DNA from: an uncultured Candidatus Saccharibacteria bacterium
GTDB taxonomy: Bacteria > Patescibacteriota > Doudnabacteria > UBA920
Direction: 5' to 3'
NCBI GenBank assembly: GCA_964631145.1
Contig: CAZVXT010000001.1
Coordinates: forward strand, 457,237-521,236
DNA: 64,000 nt
Position numbers and translations under genes: made by a program. Positions 1-59,486 of this stretch are shown here, piece by piece. The notes beneath the pieces are model-generated. The model saw only the letters and a program-made list of their open reading frames with translations. It had not been told where the DNA came from and made no database searches. How positions within the stretch are numbered: the first letter of the stretch is position 1; each line of letters begins with the position of its first letter.

Positions 1-180
1 AAACAAGAAGTCTTGTTAAATATCAAGAGATTACGTGAAATTGGTAGTTATCGTGGAACCCGTCATATGCGTAGTTTGCCAGTTCGCGGACAACGTACTA
101 AGACAAATTCTCGAACTCGTCACGGCAATGTTCGTCGTACTGCTGGTTCAGGACGTAAGAAGGCATCTGATAAGACCTAA
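1..180 (+). CDS. rpsM: 30S ribosomal protein S13, C-terminal fragment (N-terminus lies upstream of the window)
   Basis: Frame 1 from position 1 reads ...[42 protein letters not shown]...GRKKASDKT* to a TAA at 178-180. This is the Arg/Lys-rich S13 C-terminus, and it sits directly upstream of rpsK-rpsD-rpoA, the canonical order. Confidence 0.8.
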
Positions 181-193
181 AGATAAGATTTTA

Positions 194-280
194 TTTTGGA
201 CAACTGCGTTGTTATTTCGGAAAAATATTTGTCGCCGTAACTTATATATTACGCCTCCAAATATTTTTCCGAAATGCCTA
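194..280. repeat. Intergenic hairpin element, copy 1 (rpsM-rpsK spacer)
   Basis: The arm ATTTCGGAAAAATATTTG pairs perfectly with CAAATATTTTTCCGAAAT around an inner CGTAA/TTACG stem. A second copy at 1497-1585 is ~85% identical with a compensatory C>T/G>A change in the stem. Confidence 0.6.
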
Positions 281-405
281 GCATTTGCCTCAAAATTAAA
301 TCTTAAGACACGGTTCTTAGATTAGATACTAAGTTTGTATTAGAAAGTTAGAGCTCTGGTAATAAAATCCAGGCCCACACTAAATTATTTTACTTATTAA
401 TTATT

Positions 406-873
406 ATGGCTGAAGAATTACAATCAACAACTCAAACAGAATCAGAAGTTGCAACCGCAAGTGCTGTCGCTACAGATGATATTTCTGCCAAAATCAAATC
501 TTCCAAGAAGAAGCGTGCTAAGCAAAAGTTTCCAAAGGGAAAGATTTTTATCAACTCAACCTACAATAACACCATTATTTCTATAACAGATCCAGTGGGT
601 AACGTTATTGTTTGGGGTAGTGCTGGTCGCGCAGGGTTTAAAGGCTCTAAAAAGTCTACTCCTTATGCTGGTGGTAAGACCATGGAAGATACTTTAGCGC
701 GAGCTAAAGATCGCGGCATGCAAGAAGTTGATATATTTATTAAAGGAATTGGTACTGGTCGCGAATCAGCGATTCGTGCAATCCAAGGTTCCGGTTTAAC
801 CGTTTTATCTATTAAAGACAGAACATCCTCACCTCATGGTGGTGTACGTCAGAAGAAGGTAAGGAGAGTATAA
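406..873 (+). CDS. rpsK: 30S ribosomal protein S11 with ~25-aa acidic N-terminal extension
   Basis: Translation carries the S11 core (...STYNNTIISITDPVGNVIVWGSAGRAGFKGSKKSTPYAGG...), and the gene sits in the alpha operon. Confidence 0.95.
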   Translation: MAEELQSTTQTESEVATASAVATDDISAKIKSSKKKRAKQKFPKGKIFINSTYNNTIISITDPVGNVIVWGSAGRAGFKGSKKSTPYAGGKTMEDTLARAKDRGMQEVDIFIKGIGTGRESAIRAIQGSGLTVLSIKDRTSSPHGGVRQKKVRRV

Positions 874-877
874 AAAT

Positions 878-1486
878 ATGAGATATACAGGACCAAAAGT
901 TAGAAGAGCACGTCGTTTAGGTTTTGCCTTTACTGATAAAGATGCTCGAATTATGCAAAAGCGTAGCACTCCTCCTGGACAACATGGTGCTAACCGTGTG
1001 CGTATTTCAGAATACGGTATGCAGTTGCGCGAAAAGCAAAAAGCTAAGATCAATTATGGTGTTACAGAACGTCAGTTCTTGCGTTATTTTGACAAAGCAT
1101 CTAAACATGCAGGTGTAACCGGTGATTATCTATTGCAATTACTAGAAACAAGACTTGATAATGTGGTTTACCGCATGGGTTATGCAGTTACTATTGCTCA
1201 AGCTCGTCAATTAGTAAATCATGGATTTTTTGATGTAAATGGTAAGAAAGTTGATATACCTTCATTTGCAACTAAACCAGGTGATGTTATTACTGTTAGA
1301 GCTAATAAAAAAGATAGCAAGTACATGCAAGCTCGCAAAGAATTGATGAAGAGTTTTCATCCGCAAGACTGGGTAGAGATTAAAGTTAACGAATTATCTG
1401 GTAAAGTTTTGTCTGTACCAAGTATGGATCAAATCAACAGCCAGATTAATACTCAGCTTATTGTTGAACACTACAGTAGAATTTAA
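878..1486 (+). CDS. rpsD: 30S ribosomal protein S4
   Basis: N-terminus MRYTGPKVRRARRLG... and the S4 domain match; the GGAG-containing sequence 'ggtaaggagagtat' lies just upstream. Confidence 0.95.
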   Translation: MRYTGPKVRRARRLGFAFTDKDARIMQKRSTPPGQHGANRVRISEYGMQLREKQKAKINYGVTERQFLRYFDKASKHAGVTGDYLLQLLETRLDNVVYRMGYAVTIAQARQLVNHGFFDVNGKKVDIPSFATKPGDVITVRANKKDSKYMQARKELMKSFHPQDWVEIKVNELSGKVLSVPSMDQINSQINTQLIVEHYSRI

Positions 1487-1496
1487 TAATATTTAT

Positions 1497-1585
1497 TATT
1501 TGAACAATTGTGTTGTTATTTTGGAAAAATATTTGTCGTCGTAATCTAAATTACGTCCCCAAATATTTTTCCAAAATAACGACCA
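1497..1585. repeat. Intergenic hairpin element, copy 2 (rpsD-rpoA spacer)
   Basis: ATTTTGGAAAAATATTTG pairs with CAAATATTTTTCCAAAAT and the inner stem is CGTAAT/ATTACG; it is paralogous to the 194-280 copy. Confidence 0.6.
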
Positions 1586-1694
1586 TTGTATAAAGATATA
1601 GATCAATTTAATTAATTTTTTACAAAGATCGCAACTACAAGAATATTGGACGTTTGAGAATTACGAGCTTTGTAAAATAAAGGGTATTGCAAAT

Positions 1695-2672
1695 ATGCAA
1701 CCAATTCCTTTGCCAAATCAGGCTAAAGTTAATCATGTAGAAGGTAATAGCTATGAAATTACCTTAGACCCATTGTATCCAGGATATGGAGTTACAATTG
1801 GTAATGCGCTTCGTCGTGTACTTTTGTCTTCTATGCCAGGTGCAGCTGTAACTGGCGTAAAGATTAAATACGTTGACCATGAGTTTTCTACTATACCTCA
1901 TGTTCGCGAAGATGTTATTCAAATTATTTTGAATTTAAAACAACTTCGTTTACGTAGTTTTTCTATCGAACCTGTTCGCTTAAAACTACAAGTTAAAGGC
2001 GAGGGGATTGTAACTGCTGCTCAAATCACTGAAACTGATCAGGTAGAAGTGGTTAATAAAGATATGTATATCTGCAGCCTGGATTCTAAAAATGCTGACC
2101 TTGATATGGAATTGATTATCGAGCAAGGACGTGGTTATCAACCCGTAGAAGTTCGTTCCCGTGAAAATTCTGAACTTGGAATGTTGGCTATAGATGCTAT
2201 TTTTACTCCTGTTCGATCTGTGTTCTTCGATGTTTCTAACGTTCGCGTTGGAAATATGACTAACTTTGATAAGTTGGTTGTTCGCATGGAAACTGACGGT
2301 ACAATTTCTGGAAGCGAAGCTTTAGATATCGCATCTCACATTTTAGTTGATCATTTTACAATGATGTTCAATAACGAAGGTGCGGCTCGTATGGAAATGA
2401 TGCAACAAGCTCAAGGTTTACTTGATGAAGCTGAAAGTGCAGAAGAAGCAGTTTCTGCAGAATCTTTGATGGAAGCAATGGCTGAAGAAGAATCTGGTAC
2501 TAGTGTAAACGATTTGAACTTATCAAATAGAGCAAAAAATGCATTAGTAAAGTCTGGAATTTCTACTTTAGAAAAGCTTCAAACTTTGTCTGATGATGAT
2601 ATTAAAAACATTTCAGGACTAGGCGAAAAAACTATCAACGAAATTTTAGAATTTTTAGGTAGAAGCGTTTAG
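1695..2672 (+). CDS. rpoA: DNA-directed RNA polymerase alpha subunit
   Basis: The N-terminal domain (..GYGVTIGNALRRVLLSSMPGAAVTGVKI..) and the acidic alpha-CTD match; the alpha-operon position agrees. Confidence 0.95.
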   Translation: MQPIPLPNQAKVNHVEGNSYEITLDPLYPGYGVTIGNALRRVLLSSMPGAAVTGVKIKYVDHEFSTIPHVREDVIQIILNLKQLRLRSFSIEPVRLKLQVKGEGIVTAAQITETDQVEVVNKDMYICSLDSKNADLDMELIIEQGRGYQPVEVRSRENSELGMLAIDAIFTPVRSVFFDVSNVRVGNMTNFDKLVVRMETDGTISGSEALDIASHILVDHFTMMFNNEGAARMEMMQQAQGLLDEAESAEEAVSAESLMEAMAEEESGTSVNDLNLSNRAKNALVKSGISTLEKLQTLSDDDIKNISGLGEKTINEILEFLGRSV

Positions 2673-2694
2673 TAACATTATTTAATTAAAGGTC

Positions 2695-2750
2695 ACTGCT
2701 GTTCCCGCTAAAGTTAAAATGCCAATTTTGATTTTAGTGGGAACAGCAAT
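2695..2750 (+). terminator. Long stem-loop after rpoA (possible terminator or attenuator)
   Basis: GCTGTTCCCGCTAAA ... TTTAGTGGGAACAGC forms a 15-bp stem with one G-U pair and a ~21-nt loop. There is no strong U-tract after it, so its function is uncertain. Confidence 0.4.
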
Positions 2751-2827
2751 AAGGCACCCACAAGTCCATTTCGTAGCAACCCCTATATAATACGGAAGGA
2801 TTCAGTAAACAGATTTAATTTATTTAT

Positions 2828-3172
2828 ATGAGACACCGCAAGAAAAAAAAGTTTGGTAAAGGTACTGACCATCGCAGAAAGCTGCTACGTACTTTGGCGT
2901 CCTCAGCAATTTTATATGAGCGTATTGTAACAACTTACGCTAATGCTCGCGCTGTAAAGCCTTACTTAGAAAAACTTATCACTAAAGCAAAGGTCGAAAG
3001 TTTGCATAACCGCAGACAGTTATTGTCTAAGTTGACTCGTAATGCTGCCGCAAAAGCGTTAGAAGTTTACGGTCCTCGTTACGCAGAACGTAATGGCGGT
3101 TACTTAAGACTTACTAAATTAAATAACCCAAAGGCTGGTGCTTCTAAAGTAGTACTAGAATTTGTAGAGTAA
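2828..3172 (+). CDS. rplQ: 50S ribosomal protein L17
   Basis: MRHRKKKKFGKGTDHRRKLLRTLASS... is a typical L17. Confidence 0.95.
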   Translation: MRHRKKKKFGKGTDHRRKLLRTLASSAILYERIVTTYANARAVKPYLEKLITKAKVESLHNRRQLLSKLTRNAAAKALEVYGPRYAERNGGYLRLTKLNNPKAGASKVVLEFVE

Positions 3173-4284: not shown

Positions 4285-7200
4285 ATGCAACAAATAATCG
4301 TTAAGTTTTTGCTTAATGCAAAGCTTAAAATAAAAGGACTCTCAGCCTCAGTGTGTCCGAGTGGTAAGGACATGGTTTTTACCACAGCTTCAGTGATTTC
4401 TGGTGTTTCTTTGGTTTTGTCTACTTTTGTGCCTGTAACAGCAAGTGCTGCAGCGCAAAGCATTAAGACCACAAATGCAAATTGTGTGGCAGTTAATATT
4501 AACCAATACTCAACCGGTGATTTTGTTTGGGTTGATGTAAATGGTTTTGACCCAAATACTGTATATGCTTGGTCTATTACTGGACAGCCAGGATCTGCTG
4601 ATCCTAGCACAATTGTCGCTTCTGGTAACGCAACTACAGATGTAAACGGAGAGCTATGTTTTAATACCAACTATGATGTAAAGTCTGATGATAGTGGTGT
4701 ATATAAAGTAGCTTTTGATAATAAGAATGATAACTATACAGTCCGCTCAATTGTGCCGGATCCTGTACAGTGTTTTGCTGCCCCTGTTACAGTTGTAACT
4801 CCAAGTAATACTCAAGGTTGGAATACTGCAGATACCCGATCTAATGGTTCTGTAACTTATGTAAATGATGCTACAAGCCCAGCTCCGACCGGTGCATTGA
4901 GTTTAGTTACTGGCGCTGCTACAGGAAGCCCGCTTCAAGATAAAGCTCAGTATATGCACGCTGTAGATTCTTTGCCTTTATCCCAGGTCTCAAAACTTTG
5001 TTATTATACAAAGCAAAATAGCGCTTCTTTTGCTGATGGTGCCCCTTCTTATCAGTTAGTTGTTTACTTAAATGGCGGTACTTCTGGCTTTACTACTTTT
5101 GTATATGAACCTTATAATAATGGTTTTCATATTAACCAAGGAACATGGCAATCTTGGGATGTTTCTGCAGGTTCAATGTGGTCGTCAAAGTCAGTCACTT
5201 GTAGCAATGGTTCTGTGATAGCTGGTGGTGGGGGAGCCCCATTTTATACTCTTTCTCAAATAACTACTATGTGTCCTGATGCAGTTGTAGCGGGTTTTGG
5301 TGTTAATGTAGGCTCAAATAATCCTAATTGGGATACAGAAGTAGATTATGTTCAGTTTAATAACAATTTATATAATTTTGAATTAGACCCTGTATTAACT
5401 TCTAATGTAAAAGTTTGTAAAGTTGATAGTAACAAAAACCCTCTATCTGGTTGGGATGTGTTTTTGAAAGGGGATTTGATAGAGACTGTAAATGTAGATT
5501 CTAATGCTTCTACAGGTGCTAATTCTGTTAATGCTTTAGAAGCAGGTAAAAAATATGTTGTAGAAGTAACTGGTACATGGCAGAACCGTGGTTTTGAAAC
5601 CGTTGATGCTAGTTTTACCACACCTGACTCATGGACAACTGTTTTAGACGCTCCTCAGGGTGGTTATCCTGATAATCTGTTGGAATTACAAGTAAATAAC
5701 AATTTTGTTAATTGGGGACCTTATAGTTTAGCTCATAAATACAGCTATATCTACACTGGTGGTGGAGCATCTGCTAATTTTAGAGTATTTGATGGTGATG
5801 TGGATACCAATACAGTTAATTCTAGTTGGTATGGAGATAACGTTGGTCAGCTCCAGGTTAAAATTTATAAGGCATACGCTGGTGTAACGACTAACATTGA
5901 TGGATGCGCTACATTAACAAATGTTCCTTATGGCAACTATGTAGTTTCTGAAATTATGCAACCAGGTTGGGCTAATGTCAGTGGTAATAATGTTGAAGTT
6001 TTAATTAATAAAGCTCAATCAGAATTCGTTTTAGTTAATCGTTGTACAACCGAAGCTTGTGCTCCACAGACAGTGGATCCAAAAATTCATTTTATGAAAG
6101 TTGTCTGCCAAAGTTACTCTAGTATAAACGGAAACGAAGCCGCTGATAGTTATGATCATACTCCAAATAAAAATTATACTCAGTTTGCTAATTTTACTGA
6201 AAGTGGGTTTGTAACAAATTATTTGGTAAATGGTTTTGTTGACCCTTCAGAAATTCCTGGTAAAGACTCTGGTTGTGGTTTGGCTAGTGGTTGGGGATTT
6301 TTACTCTCAACTGATCAAGATCAGCATAATGATAATCAGATTGTAACAACTGATGCTAATGGTGTTTATACAACGAATGTTTCTAGTCTGCCGCAAGCTT
6401 TGTCTTCTGGTATCAGAAACGGAAATTTTTGGGTTAGTGAAGTAGAGAAAAAAGGGTATGATTTCGGTGCTATTAGATGCTATAATGATGCATTAAATGG
6501 CGATAACTTAGAATTAATTAATATTGGAAATTCTAATCCTGCAGACATATATTGTATTGCTTACAATGTAGAACAAATTAAGCCTTGTGTAGTTGAGCCT
6601 ATTAATGTAGTTAGCGGTACTACAACTAAATTTTTAGGTCTTAAAGAGGGTGTTGCTCCAGTAGATTTGAAAGCTCCAGGAAACTATCCAGGTGGGGTTA
6701 TGGATTTTGCTGTTGAGGTTGGACCAACTGGATTCCCTGGTGCTTGGGACGGATCTATTAATAGTCCAGACTTATCTGGTGCCAAATATGTAAGTAATAG
6801 CATTACACAGCCAACCGTTTCTGGTGGTGCTGGATTTGATGGTAGTGTAGATTCTTGGCGCTTATTTAGCCACACATTTACTGTGCCTGCTGGAGCCGTA
6901 AATATCTCTACTCCTTCATTGCATTTTGCTGCTGATAATGAAGTTGCAGTTTATTTGGACGAAACTTTAATTGGAACAAGTTCTAGCTTTAGTAATTCGA
7001 CCACTGTGGGTCCATTAAGTAGTATTAGTGTTGCTCCAGGTACTCACACTTTAAAATTTGCCGTAAAGAATTATGCATTTGACCAAACTAACAACCCTAC
7101 AGGCGTCATTTATAAATTAGATACCATTAATTACGACTGTGGTTCTACTGGCGGCGGTTCAAATAAATTTAGTATTTCCGGTAAAATTTACGAAGATTTG

Positions 7201-30999: not shown

Positions 31000-32049
31000 G
31001 TGAGAAAATTTTATAACCCACTTAAAATCGGTTTGCTTGTCAGCATGCTTATATTTCAGTTATTAGCATATTCGCCGTATGCACAAGCACAAGGTTTGCC
31101 TGATCCTTTAAAGCCGAGCACGTCTGTTACATCTAACGATCTTCCAAAATACAATGCAGGGGTTGACCAGAGCATTAAAGATTATCTTTGTACTCCAAAT
31201 GATAATAATTTGGGAGTCGGTTTGTATGATTGTATAACTAGATTATACAAATTTGGTATTTCTTTTGGTGCTATTGTACTGGTATTTTTCGTTGTATATG
31301 CAGGATATTTATATATAATTTCTGGAGAAAAGGGGAAGGGGAGTGCAAAAAATTATATAAGTAGCGCAATAACAGGAATGATAATTATACTTTCCAGTTA
31401 TGTACTATTAAATTTTATTAGTCCAGAATTAGTAAAGTTTAAGCCTATTCAGCCGCCAATTTTTAGTGCAGCCGATTTGCCTAAATGTGAAGATATCGGG
31501 TTTAGCACAAACTGTATTGTTGGTGATCCGACTAGCCCAAATGTTGGGCAGGTGGTTTATAGTGGTAAGACAAGCGGTGGTAGTTGTCGAATTTCTAATA
31601 CCGCTGGATGTGCTGTTGGTGTAATGAAGCAATGTAGTTTATGGAATCCAGAAGATGCATCTCGTATATGTAATTTAGAAAGTGGTGGGGGAACTAAACT
31701 TAATATTGCTAGTGGTAGCGACAAATGTACTGCGGATGGGACGCCTTTTTCTTATGGGTTGTGGCAATTCAATTTGACTGTTCATCAAGGGCAATCTTAT
31801 ATGCCTGCAGCATGTCAGAAAAAGTTATTTAGCGGAGTTAACTTTGGTTGTAGATTGATAGTTTCAAAAGCAGAGTTGGATGCTTGTGTAAACGCTTTGG
31901 GTACTGCGGAAGCCCAAACAAAAGCTGCATGTGGATTGTATCAACAAAGTAAATTTAATCCATGGAAATGTTCTGCCTTTCGATGTCAGATTTCTGGATA
32001 TGGTAATCCGAATAGTAAATATTGCCCAGCAACATTCCCAGCTAGATAA
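31000..32049 (+). CDS. Secreted/membrane protein: signal peptide + two-TM pilin-like module + Cys-rich lysozyme/lytic-transglycosylase-like C-terminal domain
   Basis: The signal peptide ends ...AYSPYAQA|QG. Then come DLPKYNAGVDQSIKDYLC, two TM helices and KPIQPPIFSAADLP. The C-terminal domain carries CNLESGGG ... SYGLWQFN (an E-S...GLxQ-type signature). Confidence 0.6.
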   Translation: MRKFYNPLKIGLLVSMLIFQLLAYSPYAQAQGLPDPLKPSTSVTSNDLPKYNAGVDQSIKDYLCTPNDNNLGVGLYDCITRLYKFGISFGAIVLVFFVVYAGYLYIISGEKGKGSAKNYISSAITGMIIILSSYVLLNFISPELVKFKPIQPPIFSAADLPKCEDIGFSTNCIVGDPTSPNVGQVVYSGKTSGGSCRISNTAGCAVGVMKQCSLWNPEDASRICNLESGGGTKLNIASGSDKCTADGTPFSYGLWQFNLTVHQGQSYMPAACQKKLFSGVNFGCRLIVSKAELDACVNALGTAEAQTKAACGLYQQSKFNPWKCSAFRCQISGYGNPNSKYCPATFPAR

Positions 32050-32065
32050 ATATTTTATAAAATAT

Positions 32066-32521
32066 ATGAGTATAAATACCAAATTAACAATTTTATTAGC
32101 AGTAGTATTTTTAATATGTACATCAGTTGTAATTTATTTTGTTTTGCAACAAAATAAAAGCTCTAATAATACACCAATTAAATCTGGCAACTCTGGTATT
32201 TATTCTGAAGAGCAATTAAAACAGAGTGCTATTAAATCTGATATGGATATATTAACTTTAGCTGATCAACCTGACTTTTATATTACATATTCGCTTACTG
32301 CAAAAGAATTTATAATCGAATTAACACCTCAAGATTTATCTACAGATTATAATCAATTAAGACTTCAAGCTGAAGACTCATTTTTAAATTTATTAAAGAT
32401 AGGGGATAAGCAAAAATTATGTGGACAAAACATTTCTGTGCTGGTGCCGCCGTCTTATAAACCAGAATACTCAGGATTTAACTATGGTTTAAGTTTTTGT
32501 ACAGGATCATTAAAATTTTAG
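32066..32521 (+). CDS. Hypothetical small membrane-anchored protein
   Basis: The ATG at 32066 gives an N-terminal TM (LTILLAVVFLICTSVVIYFVL). The longer upstream ORF would overlap the preceding gene. Confidence 0.4.
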   Translation: MSINTKLTILLAVVFLICTSVVIYFVLQQNKSSNNTPIKSGNSGIYSEEQLKQSAIKSDMDILTLADQPDFYITYSLTAKEFIIELTPQDLSTDYNQLRLQAEDSFLNLLKIGDKQKLCGQNISVLVPPSYKPEYSGFNYGLSFCTGSLKF

Positions 32522-32531
32522 GTAATTAAAT

Positions 32532-33274: not shown

Positions 33275-34960
33275 ATGAATCATAGTAAGTTTTTTAAAAA
33301 AATATTTATTATTACCTTATCGATAATTTTATTAAATCCTTTGTTTGTTTATGCTCAAGGTTCTACAGGTGCTAAGCCTACTAGTACAACCTCTAAAACT
33401 CCTACAACACAAGCTCCAACTCAGATCAACACTAACCCCACTTCTAGTGATTTACCAAAATATAATGCAGGGGTTGATCAAAGTATAAAAGATTATTTGT
33501 GTTCGCCATCAAATGACGGTAATGATTTGGTTAGATGTATAAATAGAGTATATAAATTTGGTGTATCATTTGGCGCCATTGTTTTGGTATTTTTTGTAGT
33601 TCTTGCTGGATATATTTATATTATGCAAGGAGAAAGTGGCAAAGCAAAAGCTAAGAATATTTTACAAAATTCTATTGTGGGGATGGGTATATTGCTTGGT
33701 AGCTATGTGTTACTATATTTTATCAATCCACAACTTACAACTTTTAAACCTATTCAGCCACCAATTTTTAGTGCAGCCGATTTGCCTTCATGTGAAGAAG
33801 TGGGATTTGGTACTAATTGTGTAATAACAACAGGAGCAAATGCAGGGCAGGTTGTAGATGGAGATGGGGCATGTGCCATGCCTTTGGATGCGACTAAAGT
33901 AAAAGGGTTTAATGCCACAGTTCATAACCCTTGGGATAATAATCCCGCAACACCGGATAGGCATAGAACAGTTCATTATCAGCCTAATAGTCCACCGCCA
34001 GAAGGTGCTGTAGATGCTGCAATGGGTAAAGGTAATCCATCTGCTTCTGTTTTTGCTCCAATCTCAGGAAAGGTGTATGTCCGTAAAGACCTTGGTGATG
34101 GTACCGGTAGTTATATTACCATTACCTCAGATACCAGACCTGGAGCAGATTGTTCTAATGCCAATCGTTGTGCGAGTTTGGCTCACATTGATCCTTCTGT
34201 TCAAGTAGGAAATTCTGTAACTGCTGGACAACAAGTAGGGATTACTCATATGTATACAGGTTCTCTTGGACCTCATTTGCATTTTGAATTAAAGTTAAAT
34301 GGACAGTGGATTACTGGAGACGGTAAATCAGGAACATGGGGAAATATGAAATCAGCATTATCTTCATGTAAAGCTAATAATGGTGGAGATACTCCTTCAG
34401 GTTTGGTGAATGCAAATAGCATTGTTCCTAGTTTGCAAGTAGATATGCAGTATGCTTCCGCTATTCCTTCTAGTAATAATTTCACTAAGACTGCTTTATA
34501 TATCGGCAATGATGCAAAGTTCGGCTCAGCATGTTTCTTGACCAAAGACATGGCTAATAAGTTAAAAGTTGCTTATGAACAATTGCAAAAACTAAAACCT
34601 GGTTGGAAAATAAAAGCATGGGATTGTTATAGGCCAATGTCCATACAACAAAAAATGTATGATATAGTTCAAAATGATTCTAATAAAAATAATGATGGTC
34701 TTGTGGCAAAACCTACTGATACCGCCCAGCATCCGCGTGGCGTTGCTATAGATGCAACATTGGTAGATGCAAATGGTAAAGATGTTTCAATGCCAACATA
34801 CTTTGATTATTATAATAAGTCCGATCCAAAGCAGGATCCAGGTACTAGTTCTTATAACTCGTCTCCTTATAAAAATAATTCAGAGATATTAAATTCTATT
34901 ATGACTTCTGCTGGACTAATTAGGGCTGGTACTGAATGGTGGCATTTTGGATTGCCTTAA
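33275..34960 (+). CDS. Secreted/membrane protein: same pilin-like N-terminal module + M23 peptidase domain + M15 (VanY/LAS-type) D,D-peptidase domain
   Basis: The N-terminal ~190 aa are ~70% identical to the 31000 gene. The M23 domain shows ..FAPISGKVYV.. ..HLHFEL.. The M15 domain shows ..AQHPRGVAIDA.. ..EWWHFG. Confidence 0.75.
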   Translation: MNHSKFFKKIFIITLSIILLNPLFVYAQGSTGAKPTSTTSKTPTTQAPTQINTNPTSSDLPKYNAGVDQSIKDYLCSPSNDGNDLVRCINRVYKFGVSFGAIVLVFFVVLAGYIYIMQGESGKAKAKNILQNSIVGMGILLGSYVLLYFINPQLTTFKPIQPPIFSAADLPSCEEVGFGTNCVITTGANAGQVVDGDGACAMPLDATKVKGFNATVHNPWDNNPATPDRHRTVHYQPNSPPPEGAVDAAMGKGNPSASVFAPISGKVYVRKDLGDGTGSYITITSDTRPGADCSNANRCASLAHIDPSVQVGNSVTAGQQVGITHMYTGSLGPHLHFELKLNGQWITGDGKSGTWGNMKSALSSCKANNGGDTPSGLVNANSIVPSLQVDMQYASAIPSSNNFTKTALYIGNDAKFGSACFLTKDMANKLKVAYEQLQKLKPGWKIKAWDCYRPMSIQQKMYDIVQNDSNKNNDGLVAKPTDTAQHPRGVAIDATLVDANGKDVSMPTYFDYYNKSDPKQDPGTSSYNSSPYKNNSEILNSIMTSAGLIRAGTEWWHFGLP

Positions 34961-35017
34961 ATTATGATATAGTAGGCGATCGTGCATAATAAAAAGTTTT
35001 TAAATATATTAGAGAAT

Positions 35018-35052
35018 AAAAACCCACAACAGAATAATTGTGGGTTTTAATT
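35018..35052 (+). terminator. Intrinsic terminator
   Basis: AAAAACCCACAACAGAATAATTGTGGGTTTTAATT. Confidence 0.65.
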
Positions 35053-35420
35053 ATGAGTGTGAAGTGCTTATAAATTTATCTATCTATACTATAGAACATA
35101 ATTGCAACATACTATTTGTTATATTATATGTGTCGTACAAGATACATTGTGCGACGAATGAAATATTTCAAAAAATATACCTTCCCTGATATCCAAGCAT
35201 CTATATTGTGATGGTTTAATTGATCAGTAAGTATTAATCTATCGTATAGGAATTATAAGTCTTATGTTGTTAGGTAGATAAACTTTTAAAGCTTGTGATA
35301 TAGGGAGTGTATAGTGCAATCTGGGATGTAAGATGCTTTAATAACTAAATCAGTACTTCCCTACCTTACTAATTTTTTTTATATAGCATAGAAATGTATG
35401 GTTTTTAAATAAATCACATT

Positions 35421-39583: not shown

Positions 39584-39852
39584 ATTACATATTTGGTAAT
39601 TTCTTCGTTAAAATGCTCCGGTAATTTTCACTGTAGTTATAACTACAGCTCAAATTATCCCCACATTTTGCCTCGAATTTACTCAAATATCTAATTTACC
39701 ACGAAGACTTCTAAGATTTTATATACATGCAATCTTCCCAAATATTAATTGGCTCGCCAGCTTATTAGTTAACTGGAAGTTTTTACAAGTTAAGTTTTGT
39801 TAATCGAGGCATCGCCAAAAGCGAAATTGATTAGCAAATTGCAGAAGTTCTT

Positions 39853-50547: not shown

Positions 50548-51228
50548 TTATTTGAATTTGATACCAGGACCCATTGTGCTATTTAAGCTTGTCCCAATAA
50601 TAAATTGCTTTTTAACTGCAGATGGTTTTGCTGCATGTACAGAATCCATAAAAGACTTTAAGTTTTCTTGCAATTGTTCTTTTGTAAAATTGGTTTTACC
50701 AATTGCTTGATGGATATTACCAGAACTGTCATTTTTGTAGTTAACTTTACCGCCCGCAATTTCTTTAACTGCTGCTGAAATATTCTCTGATACGGTTCCA
50801 TTTTTTGGATTTGGCATCAAACCCCTAGTTCCCAAAATCTTAGCAATTTGAGCCAATTTTGGCATCATAGCAGGTTCTGCTACTGCTACATCGAAGTCAG
50901 TTTTACCAGTTTCTTTAATTTGCTTAATCAGCTCTTCACCACCTACAACGGTAGCACCTGCAGCTTTAGCCTCTGCTTCTTTGCTTTCGCTAACAAAAGC
51001 AGCAATTTTTTTAGTCTTACCAGTACCGTGAGGTAGGGTTACAGAACCGCGAATAGCTTGATCTGTTTTCTTTACTTCAATTGCTGTTCTTACATGAACT
51101 TCAACAGAACCAGTAAACTTAGAGTTAGCTGTTTGTAAAGCCAAATCAATTGCTTCTTCTGGTGTGTAAACTTTATCTTTATCCACTAATGCATTATTTG
51201 CTTTGTGACGTTTTGATATATGTGACAT
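50548..51228 (-). CDS. rplA: 50S ribosomal protein L1
   Basis: ..KFTGSVEVHVRTAIEVKKTDQAIRGSVTLPHGTGKTKKIAAF.. Confidence 0.93.
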   Translation of the reverse strand: MSHISKRHKANNALVDKDKVYTPEEAIDLALQTANSKFTGSVEVHVRTAIEVKKTDQAIRGSVTLPHGTGKTKKIAAFVSESKEAEAKAAGATVVGGEELIKQIKETGKTDFDVAVAEPAMMPKLAQIAKILGTRGLMPNPKNGTVSENISAAVKEIAGGKVNYKNDSSGNIHQAIGKTNFTKEQLQENLKSFMDSVHAAKPSAVKKQFIIGTSLNSTMGPGIKFK

Positions 51229-51282
51229 ATTTTCCTTTCGTGGTAATCGTTTGCTTTAACAAACTCCCACAAATTAATTAAT

Positions 51283-51606
51283 TTAACTATTATTTGATTC
51301 GATCTGAAGGATTAGTCTATCTTTTAAATCTTCAAATAATTCTTTTCCATCACCTGTGTTACCAGGATTATTTAAAAAGTACTGTGAAGTGATATTCTCA
51401 AATTGAGAATAAGCATTAGGTCCAATAAGTTTTTCTTTATACCCAGGACGATTTTTGCAAAAATCTTCAAACATAGATATTAAGTTATTGTAAACTTGAA
51501 TATCGTTAGTTCGTTGTTCTTTTGCTTTGCATTGTTCTAAAAAAGAAATAATATTGATACTGTCATCCAGCATTTCTGGACTAAATGATCTTTCAGCGTT
51601 ATTCAT
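51283..51606 (-). CDS. Hypothetical small protein
   Basis: It sits 2 nt downstream of the preceding gene; no domain was recognised. Confidence 0.4.
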   Translation of the reverse strand: MNNAERSFSPEMLDDSINIISFLEQCKAKEQRTNDIQVYNNLISMFEDFCKNRPGYKEKLIGPNAYSQFENITSQYFLNNPGNTGDGKELFEDLKDRLILQIESNNS

Positions 51607-51608
51607 TC

Positions 51609-51974
51609 TTATGCTTCTTTTCTAGCAAGCTTCCAGTGATAATAAAATACTGGGCTAGCTACAATTATCATTGCTAATGCTTGTGCAGCGTCTTGCTGCT
51701 TTTGAGCTGTTTTGCGTTCTTTTTCTTCCGCTAACTGCTTGGCTTGATATTCAGGGTTGTTGCAATTTGGATCTTGTGGAAGTACTGTACCATCGGTATT
51801 TTTTACTTCAGCACACATTAATTGCGGGCTGTAATAACTATTGTTATCAGCTTTAGTTAAGATCCAAGTTTTTAGTCCGAGATTTATAAGGATAATCCCT
51901 GCTACAACTAAAATAACTAATGAGATTAGTGAAACCATATATAGGTACACTGTTTTGATCCATGATAGGTTCAT
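51609..51974 (-). CDS. Hypothetical bitopic membrane protein (N- and C-terminal TM)
   Basis: It lies immediately downstream of the SPFH gene, an NfeD-like position, but no OB-fold signature was seen. Confidence 0.4.
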   Translation of the reverse strand: MNLSWIKTVYLYMVSLISLVILVVAGIILINLGLKTWILTKADNNSYYSPQLMCAEVKNTDGTVLPQDPNCNNPEYQAKQLAEEKERKTAQKQQDAAQALAMIIVASPVFYYHWKLARKEA

Positions 51975-51977
51975 TTT

Positions 51978-52751
51978 TTATTTGTTAATATTTTCGCTAT
52001 CTATAAAGTTTTTTATATTTTTTATAGTGCTCATAAATTGAGCGGGAAAAATAATTGTAGAATTTTTCTCAATAGAAATTTCTGCCATTGTTTGCAGATT
52101 TCTAAGTTGCAAGGCTATTGGATGCTGTGCCATAACATCAGCAGTTTCAGCCAATTTTTGAGAAGCTAAAAATTCTCCTTCAGCAGAAATAATTTTTGCT
52201 CTTTTCTCTCTTTCGGCTTCAGCTTGTTTTGCCATGGCTCTTTGCATGCCTTCTGGCAATTCAATATCTTTAATCTCAACTACTGGTACTAAAACTCCCC
52301 AAGGTTCTGTATGTGTATCCAAAACTTTGGTGATTTCGTTATTAATAGTTTCTCGTTCAGATAGAATTTCATCTAGCTGAAACTTCCCTACTATATTTCT
52401 GACAGATGTTTGGGCAATTTGGTCAATTGCTCTACGGACATCTTCTATCGCAATTATAGATTTGATCGGATCTGTGATTCTGTAATACGCAACTGCAGAA
52501 ACGTCCACCGAAACATTATCTTTTGTGATAATTTTTTGGGGAGGAATAGGTAGGGTTACAGTGCGAAGATCAATCTTTTTAACCCATTCTATATAAGGAA
52601 TTATCCAAGATAATCCTGGCTTTTTTTGTCCGACTATTTTACCTAGCCTAAAGACTACGCCTTCTTGGTATTGTTGTATGATTCGTAGTCCCGGTAGGAC
52701 TATGAAAATTATTATACCTAACACCAGGAAGAACAATATTATGAAAATCAT
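51978..52751 (-). CDS. SPFH/band-7 (stomatin/prohibitin-like) membrane protein
   Basis: An N-terminal TM is followed by the band-7 core (..QEGVVFRLGKIVGQKKPGLSWIIPYIE..RTVTL..) and a C-terminal coiled coil AEAEREKRAKII. Confidence 0.85.
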   Translation of the reverse strand: MIFIILFFLVLGIIIFIVLPGLRIIQQYQEGVVFRLGKIVGQKKPGLSWIIPYIEWVKKIDLRTVTLPIPPQKIITKDNVSVDVSAVAYYRITDPIKSIIAIEDVRRAIDQIAQTSVRNIVGKFQLDEILSERETINNEITKVLDTHTEPWGVLVPVVEIKDIELPEGMQRAMAKQAEAEREKRAKIISAEGEFLASQKLAETADVMAQHPIALQLRNLQTMAEISIEKNSTIIFPAQFMSTIKNIKNFIDSENINK

Positions 52752-52818
52752 ATTTATATGATTAATGATTAAATTAACAAAGCTAATTTAATATATTTTG
52801 TCTATAAGGGTTTTATAG

Positions 52819-53247
52819 TTAATCAATTACGTCAACACCCATAGAACGAGCTGTGCCGCGGATGATTAATTCTGCAGCTGCTAAATCAACAGCGTTAAGG
52901 TCTGGCATTTTCTTCTCTGCAATTTCTGTAACTTGTGCAGCGGTAATTTTTGCAACTTTAGTTGTAAGTGGATTTCCTGATCCTTTAGCAATTCCTGCAG
53001 CTTTCATTATAAGGTTAGAAGCAGGAGGTGTTTTAAGGATAAATGTAAATGAACGATCTTCGTAGATGGTCATTAAAACTGGGATGATAATATCTCCCAT
53101 TGGACCAGTTTGGTCATTAAATTGCTTGGTAAAATCGGCAATGTTAATACCGTGGGGTCCAAGAGCAGTACCTACGGGAGGTGCTGGGGTCGCTTTTCCA
53201 GCTGGTAGCTGAAGCTTGACTATAGCTTTGACTTTTTTTGCAGCCAT
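52819..53247 (-). CDS. rplK: 50S ribosomal protein L11
   Basis: [36 protein letters not shown].. Confidence 0.95.
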
Positions 53248-58578: not shown

Positions 58579-58588
58579 TCTATAACAA

Positions 58589-58616
58589 AAGCCTAACAAA
58601 TGTTAGGCTTGTTTTT
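58589..58616 (+). terminator. Intrinsic terminator (copy 1 of duplicated terminator sequence)
   Basis: AAGCCTAACAAATGTTAGGCTTGTTTTTTATC is identical to the hairpin at 59456-59486. Confidence 0.7.
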
Positions 58617-58631
58617 TATCAATTTTTACAT

Positions 58632-59440: not shown

Positions 59441-59455
59441 TTGAAGAGAATATTA

Positions 59456-59486
59456 AAGCCTAACAAATGTTAGGCTTGTTTTTTTA
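59456..59486. terminator. Bidirectional intrinsic terminator (copy 2 of duplicated terminator sequence)
   Basis: AAGCCTAACAAATGTTAGGCTTGTTTTTTTATC; it also terminates pheS, which converges from the minus strand. Confidence 0.7.

Follow-up and report, generated by a model that had tools for sequence, protein, structure and literature searches.

Small palindromic repeats that are co-transcribed with their neighbouring genes modulate the flanking mRNA, with RNase III cutting the Correia/NEMIS repeats and RNase E on ERIC, which alters the stability of the mRNA around it (PMC2229807). Here, we describe a repeat of comparable size and shape in a 64-kb stretch (the window, i.e. the whole stretch of DNA analysed) of an uncultured Patescibacteria (Doudnabacteria-like) genome with a G+C content of 33.7 %, in which two copies of a hairpin element lie in the alpha operon, one in the rpsM-rpsK spacer (copy A) and one in the rpsD-rpoA spacer (copy B). 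Like the Correia/NEMIS (Neisseria), ERIC/IRU (enterobacteria) and RUP/BOX (pneumococcus) families, the element is an imperfect, non-coding, A+T-rich palindrome of about 100 bp that resides in intergenic DNA inside an operon, whose RNA would fold into a long stem-loop and whose site is filled in one genome and empty in related ones (PMC2229807). It differs from these families in that two copies were seen, in one operon, with no target-site duplication or cognate transposase identified, and it has no sequence similarity to described families of miniature transposable elements bearing inverted repeats (MITEs), there being no Rfam match and no homologue in the collections scanned.

Intercistronic hairpins that serve as RNase III sites or as mRNA stabilisers include those of the E. 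coli rplL-rpoB spacer, the R sites of phage T7 early mRNA, the malE-malF REP sequence and the 3′ inverted repeats of chloroplast transcripts. The element is reminiscent of these sites in forming a long intercistronic duplex with no terminator U-tract, and in parting ribosomal protein (r-protein) and RNA polymerase cistrons just 3′ of the upstream stop codon, a position from which a hairpin can shield the segment before it; those sites, however, are conserved and experimentally shown, whereas the element described here is a recent insertion with a putative role in cleavage or stabilisation. REP/REPIN repeats mobilised by RAYT transposases likewise join a palindrome to a conserved 5′ flank that is not palindromic, and their arms are expected to evolve in a compensatory manner. 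REPs, however, are short, as a rule rich in G+C, and occur in tens to hundreds of copies alongside a RAYT gene; none of these features is seen here in 80 kb. The likeness to the alpha-operon S4 leader (RF00140) is one of operon context only, as that leader is a clade-conserved pseudoknot at the rpsM start, whereas these are simple, non-conserved hairpins past stop codons.

Our preferred reading, a tentative one with slightly less than an even chance of being correct, is that a MITE/REP-like palindromic insertion was duplicated locally and now serves the operon mRNA as a hairpin for processing or stability between cistrons. Two of the options listed in the initial annotation of this DNA remain, a small MITE/REP-like repeat as the origin of the element and an RNase III-type processing hairpin as its effect. 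The parts of the two copies are as follows.

About 184-305, + strand: copy A, full imperfect palindrome (184-191 pair with 298-305 in the minimum free energy fold; nhmmer envelope 186-305)
195-213, + strand: conserved 5′ flank of copy A, TTTGGACAACTGCGTTGTT
209-280, + strand: copy A core hairpin, with 27-nt arms that are 89 % complementary (inverted-repeat census)
214-231 and 258-275, + strand: copy A 18-bp stem, 5′ arm ATTTCGGAAAAATATTTG and 3′ arm, respectively
236-240 and 249-253: copy A inner stem, CGTAA/TTACG, with an 8-nt apical loop and an internal loop between the stems
About 1487-1603, + strand: copy B, full imperfect palindrome (from the spacer folds and the block missing from relatives)
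1499-1517, + strand: conserved 5′ flank of copy B, TTTGAACAATTGTGTTGTT
1512-1583, + strand: copy B core hairpin, with 34-nt arms (1512-1545 and 1550-1583) that are 88 % complementary
1518-1535 and 1560-1577, + strand: copy B 18-bp stem, 5′ arm ATTTTGGAAAAATATTTG and 3′ arm, respectively
1540-1545 and 1550-1555, + strand: copy B inner stem, CGTAAT/ATTACG

The initial annotation had proposed two copies of one element in these spacers, each with an 18-bp perfect stem, an inner CGTAA(T)/(A)TTACG stem and a conserved 5′ flank, and with a C/T change in one arm compensated in the other. All of this was confirmed, the compensated pair being C218-G271 in copy A and T1522-A1573 in copy B, although the helix of copy B proved longer than described, with arms of 34 nt. 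The core measures about 85 nt (G+C 0.32) and the full element 112-122 nt; the copies are 1.3 kb apart. Copy A begins 3 nt past the rpsM stop codon, with TAAGATTT...AAATCTTA as its outermost inverted repeat, while copy B begins directly past the rpsD stop codon. The 5′ flank (consensus ACAAyTGyGTTGTTATTT, common to both) sets the orientation of the element, and both copies read in the direction of transcription; nhmmer scores them at 111.6 and 101.4 bits on the + strand versus about 50 on the - strand. A pattern of 23 nt comprising arm and flank matched four times in the window (both arms of both copies) versus 0.00 expected from 100 shuffles. The RNA folds of the whole spacers are likewise far more stable than expected (rpsM-rpsK, z = -4.2; rpsD-rpoA, z = -6.9), with 0/200 shuffles as good. 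About 20 consecutive pairs form in copy A and at least 24 in copy B, i.e. near-perfect double-stranded RNA of the length (about two turns, at least 20 bp) associated with RNase III processing sites. The only open reading frame (ORF) that spans copy A (35-325) is out of frame where it overlaps rpsM and looks spurious. The element sequence is identical across independent Logan assemblies of the same organism and is therefore not an assembly artefact; all assemblies of the species are identical over their overlaps, with no single-nucleotide polymorphisms.

The operon is arranged infA-rpmJ-rpsM-rpsK-rpsD-rpoA-rplQ. The window opens inside rpsM, which ends at position 180, and the genes that follow are:

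406-873: rpsK
878-1486: rpsD
1695-2672: rpoA
2828-3172: rplQ, followed by rplM and rpsI

Comparison with related genomes shows the element to be a lineage-specific insertion and not an ancestral operator, because the relatives lack it, their rpsM-rpsK spacers are short and only about 70 nt of spacer sequence is homologous. The relatives comprise nine genomes (L003, L004/L005, L019, L020, L021, L146, L147, L148 and L149) whose S4 proteins are 76-81 % identical to that encoded here, the closest non-self relative being 81 % identical; the best S4 matches carry the label Patescibacteria or Candidatus Doudnabacteria. The element is missing from 9/9, and a hidden Markov model (HMM) built from the two copies finds nothing in them. 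The rpsM-rpsK spacer spans 9-41 nt in the relatives versus 225 nt here, the rpoA-rplQ spacer 2-26 nt in most of them versus 155 nt, and the rpsD-rpoA spacer 96-182 nt versus 208 nt. Across the three spacers, the blastn counterpart in relatives is limited to positions 1599-1668, the 3′ ~70 nt of the rpsD-rpoA spacer. Copy B is thus an inserted block of ~112 nt that parts the rpsD stop codon from an older, conserved leader, and copy A belongs to ~210 nt of DNA newly gained by a spacer that once measured ~11-18 nt. The initial annotation was right in calling the rpsM-rpsK and rpsD-rpoA spacers unusually long; they are so because the element was inserted there, and it accounts for the excess.

These comparisons bear directly on the suggestion that the element is an autoregulatory operator for S4 or another r-protein, or an alpha-operon attenuator or terminator. 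Its location in the alpha operon, the strong structure and the fact that the copies flank rpsK-rpsD would suit such a role, yet we regard it as extremely unlikely. The element is missing from every relative, most of which have compact spacers, whereas a different, conserved leader lies just downstream (1618-1677); the copies do not lie at the rpsM start and match neither the alpha-operon leader nor any other r-protein leader in Rfam. A plain long A-U duplex is also unlike the S4 site on rRNA. With regard to termination, the missing U-tract reported initially was corroborated, with 0 terminator-like sites in 1-3000: the stems are rich in A and U, with GCCUAGC or AACGACC coming next, while canonical stem-plus-T-run terminators occur elsewhere in the window. 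Conservation in related genomes had been put forward initially as a check on the structure, its lack being taken to weaken the case, and none was found in the nine. No Rfam family was returned at gathering score over the window, and at E ≤ 10 the matches over 1-3000 were just sub-threshold microRNA-like hairpins. Readings as an integron attC site, an S4 pseudoknot, a terminator or a T-box/riboswitch were dropped, as their defining features are lacking.

The two copies have kept their fold. Among the positions paired in both copies (18 + 5 bp), 2/46 differ, both belonging to the compensated pair, whereas 15/42 aligned non-stem positions differ (Fisher p = 2.5e-4, a contrast that is partly circular in that stems are defined as positions paired in both copies). 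Because the stems differ far less than the non-stems and the one change within them is compensated, the fold is constrained, i.e. the ability to form the hairpin was preserved along the lineages separating the copies. The initial claim of selection on the structure itself therefore stands in so far as structure is conserved over primary sequence; the contrast does not distinguish RNA from DNA as the target. Copy A folds better antisense (-52.2 versus -41.7 kcal/mol sense) and copy B better sense (-41.5 versus -34.9 antisense), and across ten alpha-operon hairpins from four genomes the preference is 6 to 4 for sense over antisense (G.U versus C.A test).

Arms that are equally good on both strands, a copy A that folds better as the minus strand and 18-bp arms identical between copies bar one symmetric change would all be compatible with a DNA-level element independent of RNA, either an 18-bp inverted-repeat operator recognised by a dimeric DNA-binding protein or else a cruciform or a signal related to replication. 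We consider this very unlikely, since the arm centres are 44 nt apart with an inner stem-loop between them, which is atypical for operators, and the copies are inside the operon, directly past stop codons rather than at a promoter. Promoter-like matches are at chance (9 versus 9.3 expected), giving no evidence that the inserts bring promoters. Furthermore, the element is missing from all relatives, and elsewhere these slots are filled by unrelated sequences, pointing to shape and not sequence as what counts.

The position of the hairpins within the window is not random. Folding of the entire 64 kb in 90-nt windows with a 10-nt step (6,392 windows on two strands) gave a background of -13.8/-12.1 kcal/mol (mean on the two strands; sd 4.7), against which the three most stable windows were a hairpin in the rpoA-rplQ spacer (-38.5 kcal/mol), copy B (-38.3 kcal/mol) and copy A (-35.8 kcal/mol). 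The inverted-repeat census of the window ranks the same three at the top; its other entries, including I11, I13, I16 and I19, are short stems followed by T-runs, i.e. ordinary terminators. The additional hairpin is located as follows.

2697-2748, + strand: third hairpin, unrelated in sequence to the element, with 24-nt arms that are 88 % complementary, in the rpoA-rplQ spacer

It folds at -36.4 kcal/mol with four G.U pairs on the + strand and has no second copy in the window; it is the same phenomenon produced by a different element. The window contains 67 intergenic gaps totalling 5.4 kb, 19 of them at least 100 nt long, and all three long hairpins occupy three consecutive spacers of one operon, while the other 16 gaps of at least 100 nt have no such hairpin. 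Even gaps of 250-480 nt (32050-32531, 34961-35420 and 39584-39852) carry none. At their ancestral size, the three operon spacers would make up ~2.5 % of the intergenic DNA, giving p^2 = 6e-4 for two independent hits.

Searches at genome level covered ~80 kb of the 653,896-bp source contig, namely the window, 9.6 kb upstream (L142) and 6.7 kb downstream (L144). No further copy, even degenerate, was found in the window using nhmmer with all filters off and blastn-short, the next nhmmer match having E = 1.6, and there was none in either flank. An exact two-arm scan of a genome collection that excludes the source genome returned 10 matches in unrelated phyla, none of them a homologue, and the same scan of a metagenome collection returned three unrelated, G+C-richer hairpins (the loci L017 and L018 being one locus in two orientations), again with no homologue. 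The viral collection gave 0 matches, and an S4-based search of viral contigs recovered no relative. A Pfam scan of ~60 window ORFs and of the flanking loci detected no transposase, RAYT or RNase III domain, and the window contains no tRNA gene.

These data bear on whether the element is a purely selfish, multi-copy MITE/REPIN repeat with no host role, the rest of its family being dispersed across the 88 % of the genome (~570 kb) that lies beyond the DNA searched. Under such an explanation, the stem conservation would reflect selection on a master copy for a hairpin recognised by a transposase and not selection at these sites. The element does fit the published definition of a MITE as a palindrome with terminal inverted repeats (here, arms of 27-34 nt that are 88-89 % complementary) that is A+T-rich, non-coding and shorter than 200 bp, and whose sites are filled in some genomes and empty in others (PMC2229807); both copies lie past upstream stop codons, and nine relatives have the empty state, though they are distant (S4 ≤ 81 % identical). 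The outermost repeat of copy A also starts and ends with TA, and the fold energies display no strand preference. Set against this are the 0 further copies in 64 kb + 16 kb despite 16 other gaps of at least 100 nt, the lack of a transposase in the window and of a homologue in any scanned collection, and the grouping of all three long hairpins within a single operon, a pattern that recurs in the relative L146 and is unexpected from random insertion. The cognate transposase that accompanies a MITE family was not found in the ~80 kb seen, and neither the copy number of two nor the absence of a Y1/HUH transposase from the window matches a REP/REPIN-RAYT system, in which a short palindrome with a conserved 5′ tetranucleotide occurs many times alongside a RAYT gene. 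A purely selfish repeat is the main rival of the preferred reading, but we lean against it.

In the preferred reading, of an insertion that came to act on the operon mRNA, an A+T-rich, non-coding palindrome entered the infA-rpmJ-rpsM-rpsK-rpsD-rpoA-rplQ operon and was then duplicated locally, so that a copy in the sense orientation now lies immediately 3′ of each of two stop codons, those of rpsM and rpsD. The copies are likely co-transcribed within the polycistronic mRNA, given that the genes share one orientation with no terminator between them and that promoter-like matches are at chance. Each would then fold in the mRNA into a 20-34-bp hairpin with no U-tract. Bacterial RNase III accepts duplexes of 20-34 bp as substrates, and 3′-exonucleases are blocked by a 3′ stem; the duplexes here would be long enough for the one role and/or the other. 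The most likely effect would be intercistronic mRNA processing or differential stability, by which the rpsM, rpsK-rpsD and rpoA segments would become independent of one another in their fates, as would rplQ-rplM-rpsI through the third hairpin.

Several observations weigh against this reading, in addition to the partial circularity of the stem contrast. Seven outer pairs of copy B (GTTGTTA/TAACGAC) are broken in copy A (GCCTAGC), and the fold energies show no consistent sense-strand preference that would favour selection at the RNA level over the DNA level. Co-transcription and cleavage are both steps that we infer. The same is true of mobility, because just two copies, 1.3 kb apart, were seen in ~80 kb of genome, and scans of the genome, metagenome and viral collections gave none. 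No target-site duplication (often TA in MITEs) is readable in the AT-rich flanks: copy A begins and ends with TA and has AGA on either side, the ends of copy B are ambiguous, and the empty sites of the relatives are too diverged to define insertion junctions. The lack of Pfam matches to a transposase, RAYT or RNase III among the window ORFs counts on the same side.

Hairpins with no sequence in common with the element were found at the same boundaries in some relatives. In L019, a 19-bp perfect stem (GATCCATACATTCCGGATG...) lies 15 nt past the rpsD stop codon (hairpin at L019:3618-3693), and a 13-bp stem is positioned between rpmJ and rpsM (L019:2049-2096). L149 has an outer stem of 15+3 bp and an inner stem of 7 bp about 8 nt past the rpsD stop codon (L149:3621-3685). 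L146 (S4 79 % identical) has hairpins in its rpsK-rpsD, rpsD-rpoA, rpoA-rplQ and rplQ-rplM spacers, the one behind rpsD being weaker than those of L019 and L149, and its rpsK-rpsD and infA-rpsM spacers are expanded to 232 and 428 nt, respectively. It also possesses a two-copy element of its own, at 4841-4889 (rpoA-rplQ) and 5271-5319 (rplQ-rplM), with a core of GAGCACAGCGAAGAATCTCGCAA...TGTTCAGRATGACA. These copies are 86 % identical and, read by eye, differ by a compensated change of the terminal pair (C-G versus U-A) and by one A-U turned G.U; one copy holds a nested extra hairpin. All of these hairpins are built alike, a small internal loop separating the long outer stem from a short inner stem-loop, and share no sequence.

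Overall, a hairpin is located directly behind rpsD in 4/10 genomes, the rpsD-rpoA spacer has none in the other 6/10, and a same-sequence pair occupies neighbouring spacers in two genomes. No hairpin was seen in any available spacer of L003, L004/L005, L147, L148 or L020, whose contig covers two spacers, while L021 has one readable spacer, rpsD-rpoA. On at least two occasions, an element has been duplicated locally into the spacer next to its own. The boundaries within the alpha operon, and the one behind rpsD in particular, either attract palindrome insertions as hot spots or favour an intercistronic duplex. A bolder extension, which we consider unlikely, is that unrelated hairpins have been recruited repeatedly and independently across the clade as a selected double-stranded RNA 'punctuation mark' at these boundaries. 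If so, the duplex, by being cleaved or by stopping exonucleases, would set the stoichiometry of S13, S11/S4, RNA polymerase alpha and L17, with selfish palindromes supplying the raw material that the host then retains.

Should the reading of a locally duplicated insertion hold, the locus would provide a clean, small case of a compact, streamlined candidate phyla radiation (CPR) genome gaining structured RNA inside an essential, normally tightly coupled operon, its source being palindrome insertion plus local copying and not an inherited regulator. It also serves as a warning that one compensated pair between paralogous copies is not proof of an ancient riboregulator, and the recurrence of unrelated hairpins in relatives poses the question of insertion hot spots versus a selected intercistronic duplex.

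The ancestral part of the rpsD-rpoA spacer lies outside the repeat and delimits the insertion.

About 1618-1677, + strand: conserved leader upstream of rpoA, a helix ACAAAG.A.UCG / CGA.G.CUUUGU enclosing the loop motif AUUGGACGUUUGAG

The helix carries a fixed A/G mismatch. The leader is recognisable in 9/10 genomes, and the loop motif is exact in 8/10; L148 and L149 show one or two substitutions in it, and its form in L146 has diverged. In an ungapped, anchor-fixed alignment of eight sequences, 3/8 pairs show compensatory double changes, and the covariation score is 0.321 versus 0.123 +/- 0.041 in shuffles, with 0/500 reaching that score; 75 % of cells are paired versus 22-47 % when the partner is slid. 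RNAalifold on a MAFFT alignment, in which the stems were out of register, gave 0 pairs. The leader has no Rfam match, and matching a 14-mer from it to viral contigs was uninformative, yielding at least 120 random matches. On this comparative evidence, it may be a new cis-regulatory RNA of rpoA and is a better candidate for one than the repeat.

A few further features of the window stand apart from the alpha operon. The genes for L11 and L1, which are normally adjacent, are parted by three unrelated genes (50548-53247) encoding an SPFH/Band_7 protein, a DUF5671-like protein and a protein with no Pfam match, and the nusG-L11 gap of 625 nt holds just an unannotated ORF on the opposite strand. A terminator-like 30-nt hairpin, AAAGCCTAACAAATGTTAGGCTTGTTTTTT, occurs twice with 100 % identity (58588-58617 and 59455-59484), its copies lying 867 nt apart and bracketing small ORFs with no Pfam match. 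Lastly, neighbouring genes contain paralogous stretches (31129-31515 versus 33440-33820) that are 74-80 % identical over 69-141 nt; one of these genes (31000-32049) has no Pfam match, and the other (33275-34960) encodes a Peptidase_M23/M15 protein.

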